Shown: positions 11,796-64,000 of the stretch, piece by piece
Layout: the number at the start of each line of letters is the position of its first letter
Numbering within the stretch: position 1 is the first letter of the stretch
From: Escherichia phage vB_Ec-G1
Strand: one strand, 5' to 3'
DNA: 64,000 bases
Sequence record: PQ433349.1
The notes under the pieces: generated by a model
Databases searched by the model: none
What the model was told of the DNA's origin: nothing
Seen by the model: only the letters and a program-made list of their open reading frames with translations
Position numbers and translations under genes: made by a program

Positions 11796-12056
11796 TTACT
11801 CCGCAATTTGAGCCATGAGATCACGCAGTTCGGTAAAACCGCCTACGTATGTTACCTCCCCGTTCACTTCAGACAGAATTTGTGGAAATGTGCGTGGAGG
11901 AACTCCGGTAAGATCAACAACTGTTTTAGTCATTGATTCTAAATCATAGTCTTGGTCAAGACTTAAATATTCAAACTGTTTATTGCGCATAGTCAATAGT
12001 TGTTTTGACATTTCACAAAATTGACAGTTAGGTTTACCAAAAATTACAAATTCCAT
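11796..12056 (-). CDS. glutaredoxin/NrdC-like redoxin
   Basis: CQFC active-site CxxC near N-terminus, GGF near C-terminus; adjacent to RNR genes. Confidence 0.75.
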   Translation of the reverse strand: MEFVIFGKPNCQFCEMSKQLLTMRNKQFEYLSLDQDYDLESMTKTVVDLTGVPPRTFPQILSEVNGEVTYVGGFTELRDLMAQIAE

Positions 12057-12898
12057 TACCTCTCCTTATTAAGTAATACTGCTAAAGACTGTTCAATACC
12101 TTTATTTAAATCTGATTTTGTAAGATAGTGACTGGTTACTAGTTGTGACTTCACCGGACGTGCTGCTGGAGCATTATAGGTTGAAGCTGATACCGCCGAT
12201 ATCTTAACAGGTTCTGGCATCTGTGTCAAGATCTTTTCCGCAAACTCCGCCCAAGAAATAAGATGGCTTCCTGCAAAATGGTAAGTCTTAACAGACCTTG
12301 ACCAACCTGTTTTTAATACTTCAAAAATAGCTTCTGCTAAATCTGGAGCATATGTTGGACAAGAGAACTGATCAGCAACAATAATAAAATCACGTTGTCC
12401 ATCATTATAGCGAGACAACATGGTTTTTAGAAAGTTATTTCCAAATTCGCTATATACCGAGGCTGTTCGAATAATATATGCATTTGGGTTAACTCCTCGC
12501 ACCATTTTTTCACCAAGTTCTTTCGTATACCCATAATTGTTTATTGGGTTAGGTGTAGTATCTTCAAAAATAGGATGAGAATAATTAAAAATATAGTCTG
12601 TGGAAATATGCACAAAATCAATTTTAAGTTTGCTGCACAGTGCCGCAATATTTGCAGGGCCATAAGCATTAACAGCCAAAGCAGTAGCAAAATCTTGTTC
12701 GGCTTTATCTACAGCCGTATAAGCGGCGCAATTAATAACACCATCTACATAATCTTCAATAATAGCGTTTCGCACAGCTTCAAAATTTGTAATATCTACA
12801 CGTTCTTTAGGATAAATTAAAGATACATTTGCAGGGGCAACTTTACGTAAAGCTTGTCCCAGTTGTCCATTACCACCCAATACCAAATATGTTAGCAT
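12056..12898 (-). CDS. rmlD: dTDP-4-dehydrorhamnose reductase
   Basis: STDYIF, YGYTKELGEK, RTASVYS, NF..TML, DQFSCPT motifs matching RfbD/RmlD. Confidence 0.85.
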   Translation of the reverse strand: MLTYLVLGGNGQLGQALRKVAPANVSLIYPKERVDITNFEAVRNAIIEDYVDGVINCAAYTAVDKAEQDFATALAVNAYGPANIAALCSKLKIDFVHISTDYIFNYSHPIFEDTTPNPINNYGYTKELGEKMVRGVNPNAYIIRTASVYSEFGNNFLKTMLSRYNDGQRDFIIVADQFSCPTYAPDLAEAIFEVLKTGWSRSVKTYHFAGSHLISWAEFAEKILTQMPEPVKISAVSASTYNAPAARPVKSQLVTSHYLTKSDLNKGIEQSLAVLLNKER

Positions 12899-13458
12899 AC
12901 ACCCTCGCTACGTAGCTGTTGAAAAGACTTAGCCATTGCATCTTTTGTTGATAAGATAGGTTTAAAATCTTCGTCAAAAATCATATCGAAGCCCCAATCA
13001 ATCCCTATATCAGGATCATCCCAACGTAAACTTTGTTCGCTGGAAGGGTCGTATGGAGTTGTGCATTTGTATTCGAAGATAGCATCCATACTCAACACTA
13101 TAAAACCATGTGCCAAACCAGGTGGAAGCCAGAACTGTGTATGGTGTCGTGCACGAAGAACAACACCGTCCCAAGCACCGTAAGTAGGACTATCTTTACG
13201 TAGGTCTACAGCGAAATCCAATACTTCCCCACTTACACAACGAACAAGCTTACCTTGCGGATTATTTGTTTGAAAGTGCATTCCTCGCAAAACACCGAAG
13301 TTTGATTTAGACATGTTATCTTGAACGAAAGTTTGTCTACCAATGATATCTTCGTATTTTTGTTCATTATATGTTTCTAAAAAGAAACCACGATCATCTT
13401 TATAAACGTCTGGTTTGATAATTACCGCACCTTCAATTTTTGTTTTTTCTACTTTCAT
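12892..13458 (-). CDS. rmlC: dTDP-4-dehydrorhamnose 3,5-epimerase
   Basis: [44 protein letters not shown] motifs; ATGA overlap with rmlA stop. Confidence 0.85.
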
Positions 13459-14333
13459 TTTCTCTCCGCTAATTTGAGCAGGTATTGCCCGTACTCTGTT
13501 TTCTTCAGTGAGTTTCCATGATAGACCAAAGTCTCTAAAGAAATCCACCCTTTTTTGAAAGCAATTTCTTCCAGGCACGCAATCTTCAATCCTTGACAGT
13601 TCTCAATAGTCTGCACGAATTGACCAGCTTCCATCAGACTGGCGTGTGTTCCTGTGTCAAGCCAAGTAAATCCTCGTCCGAGAACTTCTACTTGTAACTT
13701 CCTGTCTTCGAGGTAGCTGCGATTGATATCGGTGATCTCCAGTTCTCCACGCGCGGAAGGGGTTACTTCTAATGCACGTTGAATAACAGAGTTATCATAG
13801 AAATACAAACCTGTGACAGCATAATCTGATTTAGGATTTTCAGGTTTCTCTTCAATAGAAATAGCTTGATGATTACTCCCAAATTCAACCACACCGAATC
13901 GTTCAGGATCTTTCACCAAATACCCGAAGATACAAGCTCCGCCACAAACATCTACCATCTCACTGGCGTTAATCAGTAGTTTACCAAAGCTTTGTCCGAA
14001 GAATAGGTTGTCACCTAAAATAAGAGCAACAGAGTCTTCTCCGATAAAATCTTTACCGATGATGAAAGCGTCCGCAAGACCTCGTGGCTCGGATTGGATT
14101 GCATAAGTGAGTTTTATCCCAAACATAGACCCATCTCCGAGAAGATACTCAAAGTCTTCCTGATCGCCTGGTGTGGTGATGATTAAGATATCCTTAATGT
14201 CAGCCAACATCAATACCGATAAAGGGTAGTAGATCATGGGTTTGTCATACACAGGGAGCAATTGCTTGCTCACACTGCGTGTTACCGGATGAAGGCGGGT
14301 TCCACTTCCTCCCGCCAAAATAATACCTTTCAT
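13455..14333 (-). CDS. rmlA: glucose-1-phosphate thymidylyltransferase
   Basis: [40 protein letters not shown] pattern; start at ATG 14333 with AAGGAGG SD. Confidence 0.9.
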
Positions 14334-14341
14334 AGCCCTCC

Positions 14342-15334
14342 TTAAATCTTCCCACTCCACCATTGAGGGTTGTTTAAGTACCATTCAATCGTTGAGTAGA
14401 GATCTTGTTCAAATGTAGAGTTTGCACTCCAACCCAGTTCAGACTCTATCTTAGAAGGATTGATTTCATAACGCAAGTCATGTCCTTTACGATCTTCAAC
14501 AAAAGTTATCAAGTTGGAAGAAGGGTAGGTTCCTGCTTCTGGATGTACAGCATCCATGTAGTCACAAACCATATAGATGATCTCCATATTGGTTTTGGGA
14601 TTACGTGTTCCCACATTATACGTTTGACCTGGTTCTCCACCTGTTGCCACTTGAAGAATAGCTCGCGCATGATCCTCAACAAAAAGCCAGTCTCGCACCT
14701 GATCGCCTTTACCATACACCGGAATCTCTTTATTCGTCAAGATACTTGTGATGATTTTTGGGATCAGCTTTTCTGGATGTTGATAAGGTCCAAAGTTATT
14801 GGAGCAGTTGGTTATCACAACAGGTAAACCGTAGGTACGGTACCAAGCTTTCACAAGATGGTCAGATGCTGCCTTAGACGCACTGTACGGGCTTGAAGGG
14901 GCATAAGCTGTCTCTTCGGTAAAGGGAACGCCAGAGTCTGCCATATCGCCGTACACTTCGTCTGTGGAGACGTGTACGAACATCTTCAGTTTATTTTTTG
15001 GGAGGAGCCTTGCAGCTTCCAATAAATTGTATGTGCCAATAATATTGGAGTCGATGAAAACTCGTGGATTCTTGATAGAATTATCCACATGACTCTCTGC
15101 CGCTAAGTGAATGATGAAATCGGGATTGCACTCTACTACTAAACTTTTGACCTGGGTTTCGTTTGCCAAATCTGTTATGCTTAGTTTAACGTGAGTGATA
15201 TCGCCTACATTCTCAATATCTGCTGCATAGCCCATCTTATCAACGACAAAAACTTCGTTATTGGGATCTTGACAAAGAGAGCGCACCACGGCACTCCCAA
15301 TAAAACCAAGACCACCTGTTACCAGATAGCGCAT
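14342..15334 (-). CDS. rmlB: dTDP-glucose 4,6-dehydratase
   Basis: [10 protein letters not shown] Rossmann motif, YSASKAASD catalytic Yxxx[18 protein letters not shown]. Confidence 0.9.
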
Positions 15335-36992: not shown

Positions 36993-37238
36993 ATAACTAT
37001 TGACAAACGTATCCTTCATATGTTAGGATACGTTCATCAAGTGTGGTAACAGGGTCGTTGACTTTTGTTAAGAGGGGCTTGCACTGCGGTAGTGTTAGAG
37101 ACTACTTCTTCAGAGGTTAGCTACCAAAGAGGAAAAGGAATAGTCTCGGCTCAAGAACTTTTACGCTGAAAGTTGGGCTTGGTCTTAGAGAATGTAGCGG
37201 TTCTCTGCAATTGTCAGCGTCTCTGTTACCACATTTAT

Positions 37239-37313
37239 GGCCCTGTAGCTCAATGGGAGAGCTGTCGGCTCATAACCGATAGGTAGCTGGATCGAAACCA
37301 GCCAGGGCCACCA
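37239..37313 (+). tRNA. tRNA-Met (anticodon CAT; elongator or Ile2-type)
   Basis: Acceptor GGCCCTG/CAGGGCC, anticodon loop CTCATAA, T-arm, encoded CCA. Confidence 0.75.
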
Positions 37314-37315
37314 AC

Positions 37316-37390
37316 GTCTTTATGGTGTAATGGATAGCACAGGAGTCTTCTAAACTCTTAGTCAAGGTTCGATTCCTTGTAAAGACACCA
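37316..37390 (+). tRNA. tRNA-Arg (anticodon TCT)
   Basis: Acceptor GTCTTTA/TAAAGAC, anticodon loop CTTCTAA, T-loop TTCGATT, CCA. Confidence 0.8.
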
Positions 37391-37586
37391 GAACATTTTA
37401 ACATGAATTAGCTCAAGTGATTTGAACCCACTACTGATCATGGTGGCAGAGAATGAGGCAAGTATGTCAGACATTATAAACAAAGGCCACGGTTATATTA
37501 GAAGACATAAATGCTCGAAGAGCACCGTTCGTGGAGAACGGGGGTTGGTGGAGTCACCATTCATGGTAAAATGTTTTAAAAAACTA

Positions 37587-37615
37587 TTGACAACAAACAT
37601 TATTTTATGTTAGAT
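37587..37615 (+). promoter_or_regulatory. candidate sigma70-type promoter upstream of tRNA-Ser
   Basis: TTGACA, 17-nt spacer, TTAGAT. Confidence 0.4.
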
Positions 37616-37624
37616 TATAAATAT

Positions 37625-37715
37625 GGAAGGGCAAATCGACGTGGCGACGAAAACGGTCTTGAAAACCGCCGAGCTTGAAAGAGCCTTGGGAGTTCGACTC
37701 TCCCTCCTTCCGCCA
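37625..37715 (+). tRNA. tRNA-Ser (anticodon TGA), type II
   Basis: Acceptor GGAAGGG/TCCTTCC, anticodon loop CTTGAAA, long variable arm, CCA. Confidence 0.7.
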
Positions 37716-37740
37716 GATTGGTAGATTGGTAGATTGGTGA
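37716..37740 (+). repeat. tandem direct repeat (gattggta x3) overlapping tRNA 5' end
   Basis: gattggtagattggtagattggtg read directly. Confidence 0.6.
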
Positions 37741-37813
37741 AATGGTAGCCACAACAGTTTGCTAAACTGTAGTCGGAAACGGCGTGTAGGTTCGAGTCCT
37801 ACATCTACCGCCA
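37728..37813 (+). tRNA. tRNA-Ser (anticodon GCT), type II
   Basis: Acceptor GGTAGAT/ATCTACC, anticodon loop TTGCTAA, long variable arm, CCA. Confidence 0.7.
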
Positions 37814-37943
37814 AGTTCTTTTTAATATAGCTTACTTTAATAGAGTAAATTTTCGGCAGATGGCCCCCATCATCTTACCGATACCTCATAGTTAGTGGTG
37901 CGAACACTGGCTATTTTAAAAAGAATTTAAATATTAGTATTTA

Positions 37944-38031
37944 GGTGAGTTAATTCCGTAGGGGTAGCGGGGCAGACTGTAAATCTGTTATCATTGCGAT
38001 TCGGGTGGTTCGACTCCATCACTCACCACCA
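37944..38031 (+). tRNA. tRNA-Tyr (anticodon GTA), type II
   Basis: Acceptor GGTGAGT/ACTCACC, anticodon arm GCAGA-CTGTAAA-TCTGT as in bacterial tRNA-Tyr, discriminator A, CCA. Confidence 0.7.
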
Positions 38032-38037
38032 AATTAA

Positions 38038-38123
38038 GATGAGTTGGCTGAATGGTTTAAGCAGCGGACTGTTAATCCGTGTTCGAAAGAACAATATAGG
38101 TTCGAATCCTATACTCATCGCCA
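38038..38123 (+). tRNA. atypical tRNA with anticodon GTT (Asn) on a Tyr-like type II scaffold
   Basis: Acceptor GATGAGT/ACTCATC, anticodon loop CTGTTAA, extra GTTCGAAAGAAC hairpin before T-arm, discriminator G, CCA. Confidence 0.5.
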
Positions 38124-38130
38124 GAATTAT

Positions 38131-38207
38131 GGACTTGTAGAGTTAAGGTAAACCCCCAGTCGCCAATAGGCTTCTGGAATTGCAGGTATCGAATCCTGCC
38201 GAGTCCC
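38131..38207 (+). ncRNA. tRNA-like element without canonical anticodon arm (possible pseudo-tRNA)
   Basis: Acceptor-like GGACTTG/CGAGTCC and T-arm-like GCAGG-TATCGAAT-CCTGC, but no 5-7-5 anticodon arm with U33 could be folded. Confidence 0.3.
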
Positions 38208-38213
38208 AGCATT

Positions 38214-38288
38214 GCTCCTATAGTATAATGGCTATTACAACGGTTTTGTAATCCGTGGATCTCTGTTCGATTCAGTGTGGGAGCACCA
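38214..38288 (+). tRNA. tRNA-Thr (anticodon TGT)
   Basis: Acceptor GCTCCTA/TGGGAGC, anticodon loop TTTGTAA, T-loop TTCGATT, CCA. Confidence 0.7.
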
Positions 38289-38561
38289 ACACAACATTAA
38301 GAGCACTGTGATTGATCGTCGTATCCTGTGCACAAGGTCTGCTCGAAAGACAGTGTTCTTAGTATTGTGTTGATCACAAAAAGAGTCACCCGAAACTTGA
38401 CCGGAGTAGGGTTGGATGGGGCAAAATGAGAAGCGGCTCTCCCATCGACAGCAACGAAGAATAATATTTGACTTTGGTTTTGTATTATTTTAAGTTAGCT
38501 TACCGAACGTAGGGCTAGTCACCCAACGGGATACTCGTCACTGTCCCAATCAATAAAAGTC

Positions 38562-38591
38562 TTGACAACAAATAGTAAAATGTAGTATAGT
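38562..38591 (+). promoter_or_regulatory. sigma70-type promoter upstream of tRNA-Gly
   Basis: TTGACA, 18-nt spacer, TATAGT; tRNA starts about 12 nt downstream. Confidence 0.6.
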
Positions 38592-38602
38592 AAATATATA
38601 GG

Positions 38603-38676
38603 GCGTTCTTGGTGTAGCGGTAGCATTCCGTCCTTCCAAGTCGGCGGCACGAGTTCGATCCTCGTAGAACGCTCCA
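38603..38676 (+). tRNA. tRNA-Gly (anticodon TCC)
   Basis: Acceptor GCGTTCT/AGAACGC, anticodon loop CTTCCAA, T-arm ACGAG-TTCGATC-CTCGT, CCA. Confidence 0.7.
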
Positions 38677-38774
38677 AATTATTTAATAAAGGGTTGCCAG
38701 AAAACTTTCTCTTTTACTCATGGTTTTCTCCTTCTCTCACACTTCTTCTGGTTGCCCTTCATTAAATGATTTAT

Positions 38775-38850
38775 TGGTTTGTAGTGTAGTCCGGTAGCAC
38801 ACGACACTTTGACTGTCGTAGGTTTGGTTCAAATCCAGACAGACCAGCCA
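38775..38850 (+). tRNA. tRNA-Gln (anticodon TTG)
   Basis: U1:A72 acceptor TGGTTTG/CAGACCA, anticodon arm CGACA-CTTTGAC-TGTCG, CCA. Confidence 0.75.
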
Positions 38851-38855
38851 TATAA

Positions 38856-38932
38856 CGGAGTTTAGCTCAGTTTGGTAGAGCATACGCTTTGGGAGCGTAG
38901 GGTCGCAGGTTCGAATCCTGCAATTCCGACCA
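38856..38932 (+). tRNA. tRNA-Pro (anticodon TGG)
   Basis: C1:G72 acceptor CGGAGTT/AATTCCG, anticodon arm TACGC-TTTGGGA-GCGTA, T-arm GCAGG-TTCGAAT-CCTGC, CCA. Confidence 0.8.
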
Positions 38933-38938
38933 ATTAAA

Positions 38939-39012
38939 TGTTTCGTAGTTCAATGGTAGAACCCACGACTGATAATCGTGAGACACAAGTTCGATTCTTG
39001 TCGAAACAACCA
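38939..39012 (+). tRNA. tRNA-Ile (anticodon GAT)
   Basis: Acceptor TGTTTCG/CGAAACA, anticodon arm CACGA-CTGATAA-TCGTG, T-loop TTCGATT, CCA. Confidence 0.75.
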
Positions 39013-39014
39013 GT

Positions 39015-39085
39015 TTCCCGTTAGACTTACAGGATAAGAGTTCCACAGCTTATTGTGATGCTGGTTCGAATCCAGCACGGGATAC
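39015..39085 (+). ncRNA. degenerate tRNA-like element (intact T-arm, no canonical anticodon arm)
   Basis: T-arm GCTGG-TTCGAAT-CCAGC and acceptor pairing TTCCCGT/ACGGGAT present; no loop with U33 and purine-37 found. Confidence 0.3.
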
Positions 39086-39090
39086 ATAAT

Positions 39091-39169
39091 AGCGGGATAG
39101 AGGAGTCTGGTCGTCCTCGCCAGTTTCATATGCTGGAGATCATCGGTTCAAATCCGATTCCCGCCTCCA
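39091..39169 (+). tRNA. tRNA-Met (anticodon CAT), second copy, A1xC72 mismatch
   Basis: Anticodon arm CCAGT-TTCATAT-GCTGG, T-arm ATCGG-TTCAAAT-CCGAT, CCA; first acceptor pair unpaired. Confidence 0.6.
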
Positions 39170-57850: not shown

Positions 57851-58477
57851 ATGGGAATCCCTTTTGACTTAAAACTTGGGCCAAACAACGACCTCATCAT
57901 GGATGATGGGGATTTGGTCCTCACTACAACCAGAACAGAAATTGCAGCACAAACTCTTGGGATAACTCTGAACACGTATCGTGGGGAGTGGTTTTTAAAT
58001 ACTAACTTCGGTGTTCCTTACTTACAAGAGATTATTGGTGTTGCTAGAAAGAAAGATATTGTAGACAGAATATTTTTAGCAGAGATTGCCAAAAACGTTT
58101 ACATAGATACAATAAACAGTTATAAATCTGCTTATGACATGGACCAACGTTATTATTCAATGACAGTTATGGTCACAGTTGGAGCAGATACAGTAACATC
58201 TATATTCAATACTCAACCTTCTGAAGAGTTTATTTACCCTGAAGCTGGTGAAGACAATGCAGCGATCATTTGTGAAGCTTACAGTATTGTTGAGAATTCG
58301 AATAGACTTTATCGCTTTATCAACTTTGTTGGTTTGCCACGTGATACCTACTCTACTTGGTGGAATGAATGGTCTACAGAGTCAGCAGTGGAAAGAATCA
58401 TGGTTAACGAAAAAGGTGATGCATTAGCTACAAACAATAACTTCGGTATAACAGCTATGACAGGAGTAGAAGAGTAA
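57851..58477 (+). CDS. baseplate wedge protein (gp25/GpW-like)
   Basis: N-terminal GEWFLNTNFGVPY segment resembles the gp25/GpW family; position after spike. Confidence 0.55.
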   Translation: MGIPFDLKLGPNNDLIMDDGDLVLTTTRTEIAAQTLGITLNTYRGEWFLNTNFGVPYLQEIIGVARKKDIVDRIFLAEIAKNVYIDTINSYKSAYDMDQRYYSMTVMVTVGADTVTSIFNTQPSEEFIYPEAGEDNAAIICEAYSIVENSNRLYRFINFVGLPRDTYSTWWNEWSTESAVERIMVNEKGDALATNNNFGITAMTGVEE

Positions 58478-58950
58478 TGGCAGATTTAACTACGATCAAA
58501 ATTTCTGATCTTACACAAACAACCTCTGTGTCTGATACAGATTTCTTTGTAACAGATCAGGCTGGAATAACAAAGAAAACTTCTTTGAAAGTGCTGTTGA
58601 GTGGTGCAGGGGTAACTAGAAACCGTCTGAATGCACGGGGAACAGTAACTAGCACCCTGGCATTAGATATTAGTTCGGCAGAATATTTTTCAGCAACTTT
58701 ATCTTCTGCAACGTGCACAATTAGTTTTACTAATATTCCAGTAGCAACAAATGCAGTTTTAAACTTTACTTTAGCTTTGCGTCAAGGAAGTGGTGCAAAT
58801 AAAGTCGTATGGCCTTCTTCTGTAAAATGGAGTTTTGGTCGTTCCCCAGTTTTGAGTTATCGTCAAGGTGCAACAGACACTTTTGAGTTTATCAGTTATG
58901 ATAATGGAGCAACTTGGACAGGTAGCTTAGTTTTAGCAGGAGTTATTTAA
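58477..58950 (+). CDS. hypothetical baseplate protein
   Basis: ATGA-coupled ORF. Confidence 0.5.
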   Translation: MADLTTIKISDLTQTTSVSDTDFFVTDQAGITKKTSLKVLLSGAGVTRNRLNARGTVTSTLALDISSAEYFSATLSSATCTISFTNIPVATNAVLNFTLALRQGSGANKVVWPSSVKWSFGRSPVLSYRQGATDTFEFISYDNGATWTGSLVLAGVI

Positions 58951-61826
58951 TGTCAAGAGTTAAGCACAATATTGACAACACGTTTCAGTTGATTGAAGGG
59001 TTGGTTCAGTTTTTGGAAAGAAATACTGGGCTTACCATAGATCCTACGGTTCAGCATTACATTATCAACCCACAAAACGTATTGGCGAACAACAGACACT
59101 TTATTAACTGGACAGCGCAGGAAGGGCAACCAAACGGTGACGCTACTACCGAAGGTCAATCTGTGCTTATCACTGGTTTTGCTTATGCATATTTGGCTAC
59201 AGGGGATAAAAAATATCTTGAATCTGCCGAGAAGTATTGGCAAGCCTATATAGATCACTTCTTCGGGGGCCAACCTATTCCTGATCCTCCGGCTAAATAT
59301 CGTCCCAACTGGATCATCAATGGTAAAGAACCACGTTTAGCACACTACCCTCTCACAGATGATGGATATCCTACGCACGGCGGGTTCAAAGGTAGCATGA
59401 TGACTTGGATTAACGGAAGGACTGTTATTCCTAAAGGTGCGCCACACTGGGGAGAATACTTAGATAAAGCTTGGTTTGCTTTCAATGGTAATCTTGGTTG
59501 GAACTCTGTTAACGCAACAGTGTATGCAATTAACCCAGATGGTTCAACCAACTGGAAAGAATATGGAGATCAGTGGGACGTTGAATGGATTATAGATCGT
59601 CTAGGACGTAAAGTTGACTGGGATGGTAACATTTTATCTACTGGTCATAGCTTTGCAGAATATGGAACAGTGCAACTTAAAAACGCTTCTGTGAACGGTG
59701 ACTATAAATTCAACTACGCTACATGCAACCCTGTAGAACACGGTGGGTATCTACTTAAGCGTAATGAGATGTGGCATAACCGTCCTGTAAACGTTCCGGT
59801 AGAGTTAGGTTATCAAGATAATGCTTCCGATGCTGAAACGTGGTGGTGTGATGCAAACTACTTGATGTATCAGATCACAGGAGAGAGAAAATACTGGCTT
59901 TGCTGGCAATCTTCTTTATTGTTGTGTCAAGACTACTCAAACATCGATATGTTTGATAAATTCTTCCGTAGATCTACGTCAGCAATAATTCCTTTTACAG
60001 ATGGTATCTCTTATGATTACTCATACCCATCTACAGCAATACCTAAATATTCTCGTGACGAATTAGGATACACAGTAATTCGCCAAGATGTTTCAGCACA
60101 AACAACTCTAGAACAACAGGCAGTTTGGTTCAGAGTGGATCAGAATTCAAAACTGCGTATTGAGTTTCAAGGTGTAGATGATGCAGGGGAAGGCGTTCTT
60201 TTCCGTCCAGAGTTAGAATTAAGCAAGACTAAGAGTGAAACAGACACAGTGACATATCGTTGTGGCTTACCTCTTGGTGCAGCTAATATGACTAAGATGG
60301 ATATACCTCTATCTAGTTTTATGCGCACCGAACCTCCTGGAGGTGGTGTATATATTATTGCTGAACCTAGAATCATTGTTGACTGGGGAAGCAATACTGT
60401 GATACAATATAAATATGCAACTGGTATTGCTGGGACAAATAGTGATCAGATAGTTTCTGCTAATATGGATTCAGATGGTGGTTTTACTATTGGGTTTTGG
60501 TTAACACCAACTAAAACAACCAATTTAAAATCTATTACGTATCGTTCATACGCAGATGATTTTAACATCACTATTACGGATTCCGCAGGTTGGAGATGGT
60601 GGGCCATGTTAGAAAAAACAAATTCTACATGGGTTACTAAAGCTTTAAGTCCTGCTGATTTCAAATTAAGCACTTGGCAACCCAATCATAACGACACAGA
60701 GACAAAACCTTCGTCAATAAACCTGACTGCTGTTGATCAGATCAACATTGCATTGGATTCTGAACCTGCAAATGGCTTGACAGGGGCAATCGACTTTTAT
60801 TGCGTTAACGATATCCCATCTTTGTATTCTTCAGCCGCTGGTGATGATTACACAATGTATTTCAGGGTTACAGTTTCATCTGAAAATCCTTATACAGCAA
60901 AACTTGGAGATTGTACAATACTGGACTACAAACTTGACAGTTTGAATTATACTCCAGGAATCATTCCATTTTCCAATATTAGTGATCCTAACACAGCATT
61001 ATATGACGGTTGGCGTGGTATTCCTTACCCAGGTTATCAATACCCATCCTTATATTGTTTTAAAGGGAGAGATATTGACTGGGTTCGTATGAACAACAGT
61101 ATAGACTTTTTATATGATTCACAAATGTGGTTTTATAATAAGTTTGCTCCTGTAATGCCTGGGCCAATGGCACAAGCTTATGTTTGGGATCGTTGGGATG
61201 CTCATAAATATGGAAACAAAAATGAGTTCACAATGTATCATTGGAACGATAAAGCTTGGGATGGTTATGAAGCACGAGCATTCTTCTGTGCGTGTCATAC
61301 GGTATACGAACTGAAACAACGAGGAGCCGAAGTTCCTGAAAAACTTTTAACAGTTTGTAAAAACTGGATCAACTATCTGAAATGGTTCCAAGATAACAAC
61401 GAAGGAAGAACACCAACAATATTTTATCCCAATGGAGAAGTGGCTGCGCCTGTAGATGACTTTACAAGTCACATGTCTGCGCTCTTTATGGCGGGATGTG
61501 CTATAATGGGGATGGCTGGATATGATTCAGAAATTCCTAACATTAGAATAGTAGCAGACCGCTGTTTTGAACTTATTCAGGAAAACTATATTGTTCTTGG
61601 TCCTAATCACGTCATGAATGGTTGTTGGAGTGCCGCTCCTAGACCAGACAGTGATAACGGAGTCTTCTTTGGCTTCCACGCTGGAGAGTTGTTACGTGGT
61701 TTTGGGTTGTATGCTTTATACAAAAAACTTAATCCCCAAAATGCATTACCTGTTTTGGATTCGAGCAATATTCCTGCACTTACTGTTTTGACAATGGCAA
61801 ACATTAGTGTGGACGTTACCGAGTAA
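58950..61826 (+). CDS. large baseplate/tail fiber-associated protein (958 aa), possible glycosidase-like domains
   Basis: Long ORF after wedge genes; helical segments (ITGFAYAYLATGDKKYLESAEKYWQAY; MAGCAIMGMAGYD) reminiscent of alpha/alpha-toroid glycosidases. Confidence 0.5.
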   Translation: MSRVKHNIDNTFQLIEGLVQFLERNTGLTIDPTVQHYIINPQNVLANNRHFINWTAQEGQPNGDATTEGQSVLITGFAYAYLATGDKKYLESAEKYWQAYIDHFFGGQPIPDPPAKYRPNWIINGKEPRLAHYPLTDDGYPTHGGFKGSMMTWINGRTVIPKGAPHWGEYLDKAWFAFNGNLGWNSVNATVYAINPDGSTNWKEYGDQWDVEWIIDRLGRKVDWDGNILSTGHSFAEYGTVQLKNASVNGDYKFNYATCNPVEHGGYLLKRNEMWHNRPVNVPVELGYQDNASDAETWWCDANYLMYQITGERKYWLCWQSSLLLCQDYSNIDMFDKFFRRSTSAIIPFTDGISYDYSYPSTAIPKYSRDELGYTVIRQDVSAQTTLEQQAVWFRVDQNSKLRIEFQGVDDAGEGVLFRPELELSKTKSETDTVTYRCGLPLGAANMTKMDIPLSSFMRTEPPGGGVYIIAEPRIIVDWGSNTVIQYKYATGIAGTNSDQIVSANMDSDGGFTIGFWLTPTKTTNLKSITYRSYADDFNITITDSAGWRWWAMLEKTNSTWVTKALSPADFKLSTWQPNHNDTETKPSSINLTAVDQINIALDSEPANGLTGAIDFYCVNDIPSLYSSAAGDDYTMYFRVTVSSENPYTAKLGDCTILDYKLDSLNYTPGIIPFSNISDPNTALYDGWRGIPYPGYQYPSLYCFKGRDIDWVRMNNSIDFLYDSQMWFYNKFAPVMPGPMAQAYVWDRWDAHKYGNKNEFTMYHWNDKAWDGYEARAFFCACHTVYELKQRGAEVPEKLLTVCKNWINYLKWFQDNNEGRTPTIFYPNGEVAAPVDDFTSHMSALFMAGCAIMGMAGYDSEIPNIRIVADRCFELIQENYIVLGPNHVMNGCWSAAPRPDSDNGVFFGFHAGELLRGFGLYALYKKLNPQNALPVLDSSNIPALTVLTMANISVDVTE

Positions 61827-61834
61827 GGGGTAAA

Positions 61835-63988
61835 ATGAAACAAGCTATATTTACTGTCACGCGAGACAAGAGAGTAAATGCGAGTTCATTTAACTACACG
61901 ACTGTTGACGGAACAGCAGTCGCTGGTAGAGATTATATAGCAAAATCGGGAACACTTGTGTTCCCTGATGATGCTGATTCTGCTACCATTGTGGTTGAAG
62001 TATTTGAACGACCAAAGAACTCAATAGATCTTAACTTCTCCCTCCAAGTTTCAGGGATTAGTCAAAATAACATGATGGTTGAAACGACCATCAATTGTAT
62101 TATAACTACTATCCAAGAAAATACTACTCCAATAACTTGGACTACAAAAGACGTTAAAATGTTCTCTCCTATGTATTGGACAATAGATTCTCAAGCAACG
62201 GAAAGTTGTTCTATTGTATCTCATGGAGACTCTTTTACTGCAAGATTTGTAAACAGAACAACAGCAGGTTTGGCAGGGGTTATCTGGAGCACAGTTGACA
62301 AATATGACCATAAAGGTGTTGGGTATTTACCCCACACAGATTTAAGTTCAGAGAAACTTTGGTTTAAAATGGAAATTAGTCAAAACATGCCAGGTTTTAA
62401 AGAAGAACCTTTGGTGCCAACTTTGACTGTAACTCTCTTGGATAAAAGTGTCCACTATGTTAGTTTAGGATTTTATGCTTCAGATATTTCAGAAGATGGT
62501 AAAACAGCTACAATCAAATTAGATTTTGGTAATATCTTCTCTGGTCCTAATAATGATATTCCTTTGGACATGAGTGCTGTAGATAATATTTTCTTCTCTT
62601 TGATTACAGCAAGGTATGAAGAAATAGAAGAGGTTGTACCTATTGACAGTCAAGAGGCTTGGTTTACTTTCACTCTTCTTGAACCTACCTCTGGTTACAG
62701 TATGATGAAAGTCAGCAACCTTGTCCAGCCTGAACATGATATTCGCATGTGCACATCTTATGATGATATGTATAACCTGACTCCAGAGAGAGTTATTTAT
62801 AATACGTATGCACTAGGTTATCGTGGAATGATTAACCATTACAACGGAATGTCTCACTATTATGAGTTCTCATGGAACGGAACATCTTGGGCTTTAAATA
62901 GATCTGTTTTCCTGAATCCGGCTACAGAAGCTTGGCTTAACAGTTTCCATTCTATAGCTAATGAAAATGGCTACACAATAATGAACTCTTTGAGTTTTGA
63001 GTTGATGAGCACAGTTTGTCCTGTAGAATGGGTTCAACATGATTGGAACGATGCTCTTGCAGCAACAGGTTATGAGCCGCCTAGTTATGTGTTATCTCCA
63101 ACAATTGATGAAGGTATGGAATATTTGCAAAATGTTATTAACAAAATAGCATCTATTTCTCAAGCTAACAATATTCCAGTCGTCATTCAAATTGGTGAAC
63201 CTTGGTGGTGGTATAATACAGCAAGTAAAATGCCTTGTATATATGATTACACTACCAAACTGGCATTCAATACAGAAACAGGCTTATTTGCACAAGATGC
63301 AGGAACAATAGATAATTATAAAACAGGAACGCCATTTGACGAATACTATGCATTTTTGTCTCGTAAACTAGGGTTAAGAGTTACAAAGTTTGCAACAGAT
63401 ACTAGAGCAACTTATCCAGGAGCTAAAGTAACATTGCTTCCATTCTTACCATCAATTATTGGCAACGGGTTGATGGAGAAAGTTAACTTTCCGTCTGATT
63501 ACTACATTCCTGAAGCTTTTGATTTTTACTGTTCGGAGTGTTACGACTGGCTTCTGGAAGGTAAAATGATGAAAGCATTTGATGCAATTACCATACCACA
63601 TGAAAAATTAGGTTTTGAATATTCTGATATTCACTACCTTTCAGGTTTTGTTCCAGATGCTACTCTTGCACCTTTGTATGGCTTTGATCCTAAATCAAAC
63701 TACCGCACATATCTTTGGAAGATGATTATAGGTAACATAGTGTTGAACGCCAATAAGTTTGACGGACTTACACAATATATATGGGCCTATCCTCAAATAA
63801 TGCATGATTCTATCACGGTAGTTAATTCTCAATCCCAAGTTTTCTATATGGGTAACGTGCCTTTGAACGTTTATTTACAGGATATCACTCTTAAACAGGT
63901 AAATGTTGAGATTGCCACCATAAGTGGAATTACATTAGCCACTAAATCTGGAGAAGATTTAGTAACAACACAAAAATTTTATATATAG
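61835..63988 (+). CDS. distal tail protein with N-terminal Calx-beta-like domain (717 aa)
   Basis: TTVDGTAVAGRDYIAKSGTLVFPDDADSATIVVEV matches Calx-beta consensus; large C-terminal domain. Confidence 0.5.
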   Translation: MKQAIFTVTRDKRVNASSFNYTTVDGTAVAGRDYIAKSGTLVFPDDADSATIVVEVFERPKNSIDLNFSLQVSGISQNNMMVETTINCIITTIQENTTPITWTTKDVKMFSPMYWTIDSQATESCSIVSHGDSFTARFVNRTTAGLAGVIWSTVDKYDHKGVGYLPHTDLSSEKLWFKMEISQNMPGFKEEPLVPTLTVTLLDKSVHYVSLGFYASDISEDGKTATIKLDFGNIFSGPNNDIPLDMSAVDNIFFSLITARYEEIEEVVPIDSQEAWFTFTLLEPTSGYSMMKVSNLVQPEHDIRMCTSYDDMYNLTPERVIYNTYALGYRGMINHYNGMSHYYEFSWNGTSWALNRSVFLNPATEAWLNSFHSIANENGYTIMNSLSFELMSTVCPVEWVQHDWNDALAATGYEPPSYVLSPTIDEGMEYLQNVINKIASISQANNIPVVIQIGEPWWWYNTASKMPCIYDYTTKLAFNTETGLFAQDAGTIDNYKTGTPFDEYYAFLSRKLGLRVTKFATDTRATYPGAKVTLLPFLPSIIGNGLMEKVNFPSDYYIPEAFDFYCSECYDWLLEGKMMKAFDAITIPHEKLGFEYSDIHYLSGFVPDATLAPLYGFDPKSNYRTYLWKMIIGNIVLNANKFDGLTQYIWAYPQIMHDSITVVNSQSQVFYMGNVPLNVYLQDITLKQVNVEIATISGITLATKSGEDLVTTQKFYI

Positions 63989-64000
63989 GAGTAAAAATGT

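Follow-up and report, generated by a model that had tools for sequence, protein, structure and literature searches.

Two adjacent open reading frames (ORFs) of Escherichia phage vB_Ec-G1 encode conserved proteins with the folds of carbohydrate-active enzymes. They were studied in a 64,000-nucleotide stretch of record PQ433349.1, hereafter the window, and are named ORF A (958 residues) and ORF B (717 residues). Both lie on the plus strand, wholly within the window, exactly at the coordinates, lengths and strand given by a preceding sequence-only reading. Taking orthology and folds together, we are almost certain that they are the Phapecoctavirus orthologs of phage phi92 gp141 and gp142. Both probably sit at the periphery of the baseplate. 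That ORF B recognises the exopolysaccharide NGR in Phapecoctavirus is, from sequence comparison, only slightly favoured. We lean moderately towards the whole package of orthology, folds, location and NGR recognition by ORF B.

ORF A is 82.9% identical to phi92 gp141 over 958 residues. For ORF B and gp142 the figure is 76.9% over 719 residues. Each protein also matched one PHROG family with an E value of 0 (phrog_2871 and phrog_6040, respectively). Flanking gene order is the same in both phages; ORF A and ORF B lie between gp140 and the tailspike slot, as gp141 (958 residues) and gp142 (719 residues) precede the endosialidase gp143 in phi92. Hub, spike, sheath initiator and wedge proteins are 72.5% to 86.6% identical to their phi92 counterparts. 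More distantly, ORF A is 35% identical to rV5 ORF42 and ORF B 43% identical to the rV5 gp34 family. Homologs across families infecting different genera retain 35–45% identity.

Downstream of ORF B, the next gene encodes a 618-residue protein whose likeness to the endosialidase gp143 is confined to the N-terminal 54 residues (94% identity). It is a swappable tailspike with a conserved N-terminal anchor. Consistent with this, the gp143 position is reported to vary among Justusliebigvirus isolates. Because ORF A and ORF B match phi92 at the level of the core baseplate, and the variable slot is next door, they appear to be conserved baseplate-module proteins and not variable host-range fibres. The sequence-only reading had called them distal tail proteins. 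They are not variable distal fibres; their genes follow that of a gp25-like sheath initiator and precede those of the wedge, and their conservation equals that of the hub and wedge proteins. An N-terminal anchor motif of ~40 residues is common to the 157-residue protein encoded upstream of ORF A, the 618-residue spike, phi92 gp140, and rV5 gp43 and gp41. Genes bearing this anchor flank ORF A in two lineages (here and in rV5). The motif was not found in ORF A or ORF B.

The predicted structure of ORF A is an (alpha/alpha)6 barrel, as in six-hairpin glycosidases (glycoside hydrolase (GH) families GH8, GH48, GH76, GH88 and GH105). The helices that the sequence-only reading had likened to alpha/alpha-toroid glycosidases do form such a barrel in the prediction. 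The C-terminal ~30 residues are disordered and lack conservation. In Pfam searches with the full-length protein, 36 aligned homologs at E<=10 and insertion-free barrel constructs, no curated GH family reached threshold. NCBIfam, and phmmer and hmmsearch comparisons with the PDB, gave ORF A no glycosidase-family membership. The best sub-threshold matches were GH76 (E 0.0016, one member) and GH127 (E 0.018), with GH47 and a C5-epimerase also present. A PDB match to designed 'Scone' beta-propeller proteins was discarded: it repeated a 22-residue stretch and contained no significant domain. A Foldseek search of BFVD added only distant phage 'tail fiber' relatives. The TTEGQS segment of ORF A resembles what we take to be the proton-donor (catalytic-acid) motif of GH8; this presumed likeness was not used as evidence.

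ORF B begins with a Calx-beta domain, as the sequence-only reading had proposed from a peptide that corresponds to residues 22–50. The domain exceeds its Pfam cut-off and matches calcium-binding domains of Na/Ca exchangers in the PDB at E 1e-4. It is a lineage-specific N-terminal addition, absent from Acinetobacter prophage homologs and from the A–B fusion described below. The remainder of the protein scores above the gathering cut-offs for PF23844 (NCTSP_N) and PF23845 (a TIM barrel) and matches solved phage N4 chains structurally. In the predicted structure, the barrel has a (beta/alpha)8 fold and is structurally closest to the GH153 hydrolase domain of PgaB. There is no sequence match to the PgaB/BpsB GH153 domain (8% identity). 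Invariant residues of ORF B lie at the C-terminal ends of the strands: D310/D311, GMSHY (338–342), E389, QIGEPWWW (452–459, including the acid E455 after strand 4), D471 and E568-x-Y570-D571. Pending structural or biochemical confirmation, we suggest that the barrel is of the GH153 (PgaB) type and glycoside-hydrolase-like rather than deacetylase-type.

An alternative label is used by BASEL and by Sellner 2021, in which ORF B would be a tail fibre that deacetylates its glycan receptor to move along it. In BASEL, Phyre2 predicted a 'poly-GlcNAc deacetylase domain' common to this family and N4 gp64, and the label is repeated elsewhere in the literature. A precedent exists in the O-antigen deacetylase fibre of phage G7C. 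However, ORF B has neither the (beta/alpha)7 fold of CE4 polysaccharide deacetylases nor a Polysacc_deac domain with its Asp-His-His triad, and the CE4 label was rejected. We consider deacetylation very unlikely.

The sequence-only reading held that both proteins are receptor-binding or polysaccharide-degrading. In its stronger form, both would be active depolymerases that set host range in the manner of tailspikes. The predicted folds are glycoside-hydrolase-like in both proteins, and in ORF B invariant acids line the catalytic face of the barrel, among them E568 and, within a GEP motif that follows strand 4, E455. Furthermore, the review of Latka 2017 lists phi92 gp141 and gp142 as 'glycosidase', citing Schwarzer 2012. 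Host-range depolymerases are hypervariable, however, whereas ORF A and ORF B are 77–83% identical between genera and 35–45% identical across families, and the variable slot is occupied by the next gene. ORF A and ORF B both lack the architecture of a trimeric beta-helix or fibre. ORF A also falls outside every curated GH family, and no activity has been reported for either protein. We find this form of the proposal somewhat unlikely. The related possibility of trimeric tailspike or fibre depolymerases was rejected, given the globular enzyme-type predicted structures, the missing anchor motif and the uniformly high conservation. What stands is that both folds resemble those of sugar enzymes, and that the ORF B family is the candidate NGR receptor-binding protein of the literature; any depolymerase activity is putative. 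Beta-rich fibre folds with no catalytic domain, named by the sequence-only reading as the outcome that would count against it, were not what the predictions gave; both folds are carbohydrate-enzyme-like.

The ORF B barrel is encoded differently in N4-type phages. In vB_Eco_SPSP (L003 2484–7918) the Pfam TIM-barrel_NCTSP model is divided, with no overlap, between the adjacent genes gp65 and gp64. Residues 374–416 of gp65 correspond to model positions 4–46, including the DD and GMSHY segments, and residues 109–407 of gp64 to positions 60–347. ORF B carries positions 1–346 in a single chain. Since the model is undivided in ORF B and split in N4, ORF B appears to correspond to gp64 and the N-terminus of gp65 joined in one chain. 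On the simplest interpretation of these alignments, the N4 barrel is put together in trans, with strands 1–2 supplied by gp65 and the rest by gp64. This would explain the obligate gp65/gp64 heterodimer. A 2026 preprint proposes convergence for the similarity between myoviruses and podoviruses. The homology that we detect spans NCTSP_N and the whole barrel; hence, we attribute the likeness to shared ancestry of a mobile module. The ORF B-type module also occurs in Acinetobacter prophages and in the jumbo phage Goslar. Separately, many Pseudomonadota metagenome proteins of ~780 residues (P0206–P0230) have the NCTSP_N and TIM-barrel module fused to DUF2460, a distal tail protein of the gene transfer agent (GTA) type. 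Such fusions suggest that the glycan-recognition module also decorates siphovirus and GTA-type tail tips.

Many GenBank records name ORF B orthologs as a non-contractile tail sheath protein, following Pfam and PHROG names carried over from N4 gp65. Upstream of ORF A and ORF B, this myovirus encodes a contractile sheath and tube of its own. What ORF B has in common with gp65 is limited to the N-terminal domain and barrel; it lacks D3–D10, the domains that extend along the N4 tail as far as the plug. A sheath role, around a non-contractile tail and in contact with the plug, was rejected, as ORF B ends after the barrel and the phage encodes a contractile sheath and tube. It is extremely improbable that ORF B is such a protein. 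The annotation is a name transfer and the function name should not carry over. GenBank names for ORF B orthologs conflict in other ways too: 'capsid and scaffold protein', 'tail fiber' and, for Acinetobacter prophages, 'phage capsid protein' all occur.

Evidence for location comes from gene fusions. P0088 (1097 residues, representing a 90%-identity cluster of 142 sequences) has the N-domain of P2 gpI (Tail_P2_I, residues 6–142) followed by the ORF A module. It is encoded in a P2-like prophage with the canonical order gpV, gpW, gpJ, gpI; the A module is a C-terminal extension of the wedge subunit. In a second fusion, P0107 (1557 residues), an ORF A homolog is joined end-to-end to the equivalent of ORF B residues 108–675 (52% identity) and only the Calx-beta domain is skipped. 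P0107 is encoded in the tail module of an SU10-like podovirus, immediately downstream of the adaptor gene, which is of the SU10 type (L006 6691–11364, Logan SRR10874396 contig). From the gpI–A fusion, the A–B fusion and the flanking anchor genes, we infer that ORF A is a wedge-attached platform, with ORF B and anchor-bearing trimers docking alongside.

The same observations could fit a purely structural role. Here, both proteins would be scaffolds with fossil enzyme folds that neither bind sugars nor catalyse a reaction and serve as docking hubs for exchangeable fibres and spikes. Conservation at the level of the core baseplate, fusion of the ORF A module to gpI, anchor-bearing fibre genes beside ORF A in two lineages and the structural sheath formed by the homologous N4 gp64 and gp65 are all compatible with this. 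Conversely, the invariant residues of ORF B gather on the face with which TIM barrels canonically bind ligands and not on an outer surface. Moreover, the ORF B-type module is the sole one common to N4 and the NGR-dependent myoviruses, which argues for receptor recognition. We regard a scaffold-only role as unlikely.

Infection by N4, Vequintavirinae and phi92-like phages depends on wecB and nfrB, and thus on NGR, and an ORF B-type protein is common to all of them. Since 2021, the ORF B family has figured in the literature as an N4-like protein that targets glycans. In a 2026 preprint, phi92 gp142 is given as the inferred NGR receptor-binding protein; the predictions made there are limited to genera other than Phapecoctavirus. 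In that preprint, GMSHY is perfectly conserved in NGR-targeting myoviruses and podoviruses. The 59–76-residue segment shared by Vequintavirus, Justusliebigvirus and Enquatrovirus proteins is present in ORF B, GMSHY included. Within this segment, ORF B and N4 gp65 are 41% identical. By analogy with these systems, recognition of NGR by ORF B, possibly with cleavage, is the mechanism with the best support.

We propose that ORF A and ORF B would be conserved, globular, probably monomeric baseplate-periphery proteins of a multivalent 'Swiss-army-knife' adsorption apparatus in phi92-, phAPEC8- and rV5-like myoviruses. ORF A may be anchored on the gpI/TssG-type wedge subunit, and ORF B and the trimeric fibres and spikes of flanking genes would dock next to it. 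The TIM barrel of ORF B would bind NfrB/NfrA-dependent NGR and perhaps cleave it. NGR would be the conserved primary receptor on hosts without a matching capsule or O-antigen, while the exchangeable downstream tailspike would handle these variable glycans. In the 2026 cryo-electron microscopy paper on phi92, gp141 and gp142 are never mentioned; no protein is assigned to fibre II, in its entirety, or to the arm of fibre I, which is L-shaped. Nothing in the phi92 baseplate model in the PDB (21vq: gp137, gp145) matched ORF A or ORF B, and the phiTE baseplate paper (9CUY) describes no ORF A-like component. ORF A and ORF B are clear candidates for the fibre I arm, fibre II density or both. A bolder combined account is possible but doubtful. 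Here, the two proteins would be the globular, so far unassigned density at the periphery of the phi92-type baseplate (fibre I arm, fibre II or both), a wedge-anchored monomeric pair serving as docking station for exchangeable spikes and as a conserved unit that processes glycans. As a GH153-like hydrolase or lectin specific for NGR, ORF B would be no deacetylase. The N4 'sheath' would be a gene-split derivative of shared, not convergent, origin, its barrel assembled in trans.

Several points weigh against the proposed model. For both proteins, virion location and stoichiometry are predicted. At the sequence level ORF A is a member of no GH family. The A–B fusion is known from one 30-kb contig. 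The A and B genes are not adjacent in rV5, and in many phages only one of the two occurs, be it A or B; hence, an obligate A–B complex cannot be general. No literature was found linking Phapecoctavirus itself to NGR. Finally, the division of labour in N4 is unsettled: gp65 reportedly binds NfrA, and gp66 is the proposed NGR binder.

The sequence-only reading had also tied the two proteins to an rml operon. The genes are real: rmlD, rmlC, rmlA and rmlB (12056–15334, minus strand) all score above NCBIfam equivalog cut-offs and make up a complete dTDP-L-rhamnose pathway. However, they are ~43 kb from ORF A and ORF B, divergently transcribed and inside a nucleotide-metabolism block, with glutaredoxin, ribonucleotide reductase and ThyX as neighbours. 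Nothing connects them to the tail proteins. Candidate roles in the phage are glycosylation of its DNA or virion, or modification of the host surface. GC content is locally higher at the rml genes (0.42 compared with about 0.38).

The features are listed below. The gene for the 157-residue protein is the immediate upstream neighbour of ORF A. Its stop codon overlaps the ORF A start (TAATG), with AGGAG 8 nucleotides 5' of the ATG, and ORF B starts 8 nucleotides past the ORF A stop. ORF A and ORF B belong to one operon and show translational coupling. Between 56 and 64 kb, the window is 98% identical to dozens of E. coli myovirus genomes of the genus Phapecoctavirus (phAPEC8-like, Stephanstirmvirinae). 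In an annotated relative, ORF A is preceded by genes for the tape measure, tube initiator, plug, hub, central spike, gp25-like sheath initiator and 157-residue protein. ORF B is followed by the 618-residue protein, a small protein, J-type and I-type wedge subunits, and then fibres and tailspikes. Records labelled as Campylobacter, Acinetobacter or Klebsiella phage hold near-identical E. coli-phage sequence, suggesting host misassignment or contamination. GC skew changes from negative to positive near ~36000 in the window, at a divergent junction between minus-strand early and metabolic genes and plus-strand structural genes. In a near-identical relative (L005), 11 tRNA genes cluster at 37156–39164, just downstream of the matching junction.

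Table 1. Positions of ORF A, ORF B, their segments and the neighbouring genes in the window.
Feature	Coordinates	Strand	Description
ORF A, 958 residues	58950–61826	+	(alpha/alpha)6 barrel with two beta-rich insertions; predicted fold; phrog_2871
ORF A barrel segment 1 (residues 1–104)	58950–59261	+	NNRHF (47–51) and TTEGQS (66–71) nearly invariant, at helix start
ORF A insertion 1 (residues 105–292)	59262–59825	+	Beta-rich; best-conserved segment, mean column identity 0.59; invariant HNRP (276–279) at end
ORF A barrel segment 2 (residues 293–335)	59826–59954	+	Two helices; D294, E296 and W298 invariant
ORF A insertion 2 (residues 336–698)	59955–61043	+	All-beta, sandwich-like domains; residues 498–624 match phrog_23426 'tail protein'
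ORF A barrel segment 3 (residues 699–927)	61044–61730	+	Six long helices complete the (alpha/alpha)6 barrel
ORF B, 717 residues	61835–63988	+	Calx-beta, NCTSP_N and TIM barrel
ORF B Calx-beta (PF03160), residues 4–82	61844–62080	+	Pfam E 7.5e-11; 42.5 bits, gathering cut-off 27
ORF B NCTSP_N beta domain, residues 107–292	62153–62710	+	Homologous to N4 gp65 residues ~51–130
ORF B TIM barrel (PF23845), residues 299–658	62729–63808	+	Pfam model and predicted structure
ORF B GMSHY motif, residues 338–342	62846–62860	+	Within TIM barrel
157-residue protein	58477–58950	+	phi92 gp140 ortholog (83% identity); small, fibre-like; phrog_9017 tail fiber; shared N-terminal anchor motif
Next gene (start codon only; gene leaves window)	63997–64000	+	618 residues in near-identical relatives (L001 19998–21854)

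The genes and their enzyme-like nature were already known, ORF A and ORF B being orthologs of described phi92 proteins. As cited by Latka 2017 and another paper, Schwarzer 2012 predicted the glycosidase-like nature of gp141 and gp142. We add the GH153-type barrel, the split versus single-chain relation to N4 gp65/gp64, and the gpI–A and A–B fusions that place the proteins on the wedge. These modest additions need structural or biochemical confirmation. Broad, multivalent host recognition makes phages related to phi92, phAPEC8 and rV5 common candidates for therapy and biocontrol. ORF A and ORF B are two large, conserved parts of the adsorption apparatus whose location and activity are still predicted after the 2026 phi92 structure. 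Placing ORF A on the wedge, reading ORF B as a single-chain gp65/gp64 and correcting the 'deacetylase' label should help map interpretation, receptor-swap engineering and tests of NGR recognition.

In fold, ORF A resembles the six-hairpin glycosidases GH48, GH8, GH105/GH88 and GH76, and AGE-type sugar epimerases, at ~10% identity. Unlike these enzymes, its barrel is broken by beta insertions of about 190 and 360 residues, and the protein is a phage baseplate component, in some phages fused to the wedge protein gpI. In P2, the gpI/TssG-type wedge subunit carries the tail fibre at its C-terminus. In the P2-like prophage the ORF A module continues from the gpI N-domain, which suggests that ORF A occupies the fibre-docking position of the wedge. 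In the window, by contrast, ORF A is a polypeptide of its own, and its gene precedes the wedge genes. The GH153 domain of PgaB/BpsB is periplasmic and acts on dPNAG, with D474 as its catalytic Asp, whereas ORF B is virion-borne and its candidate substrate is NGR, which is ManNAc-dependent. N4 gp65 and gp64 (PDB 9LC0, 9YF4) form a non-contractile receptor-binding sheath heterodimer, in which gp65 D3–D10 reach the tail plug and contact it through D9–D10. ORF B is a single chain on a contractile-tail baseplate; it lacks D3–D10 and carries an additional Calx-beta domain. The closest parallel is phi92, which belongs to another genus of Stephanstirmvirinae (Justusliebigvirus). Its proteins, catalogued in the literature as tail-fibre or 'glycosidase' proteins, match ORF A and ORF B in position and in length (958/958 and 717/719 residues), while the downstream spike, endosialidase gp143 in phi92 and the 618-residue protein here, has the 54-residue anchor alone in common.

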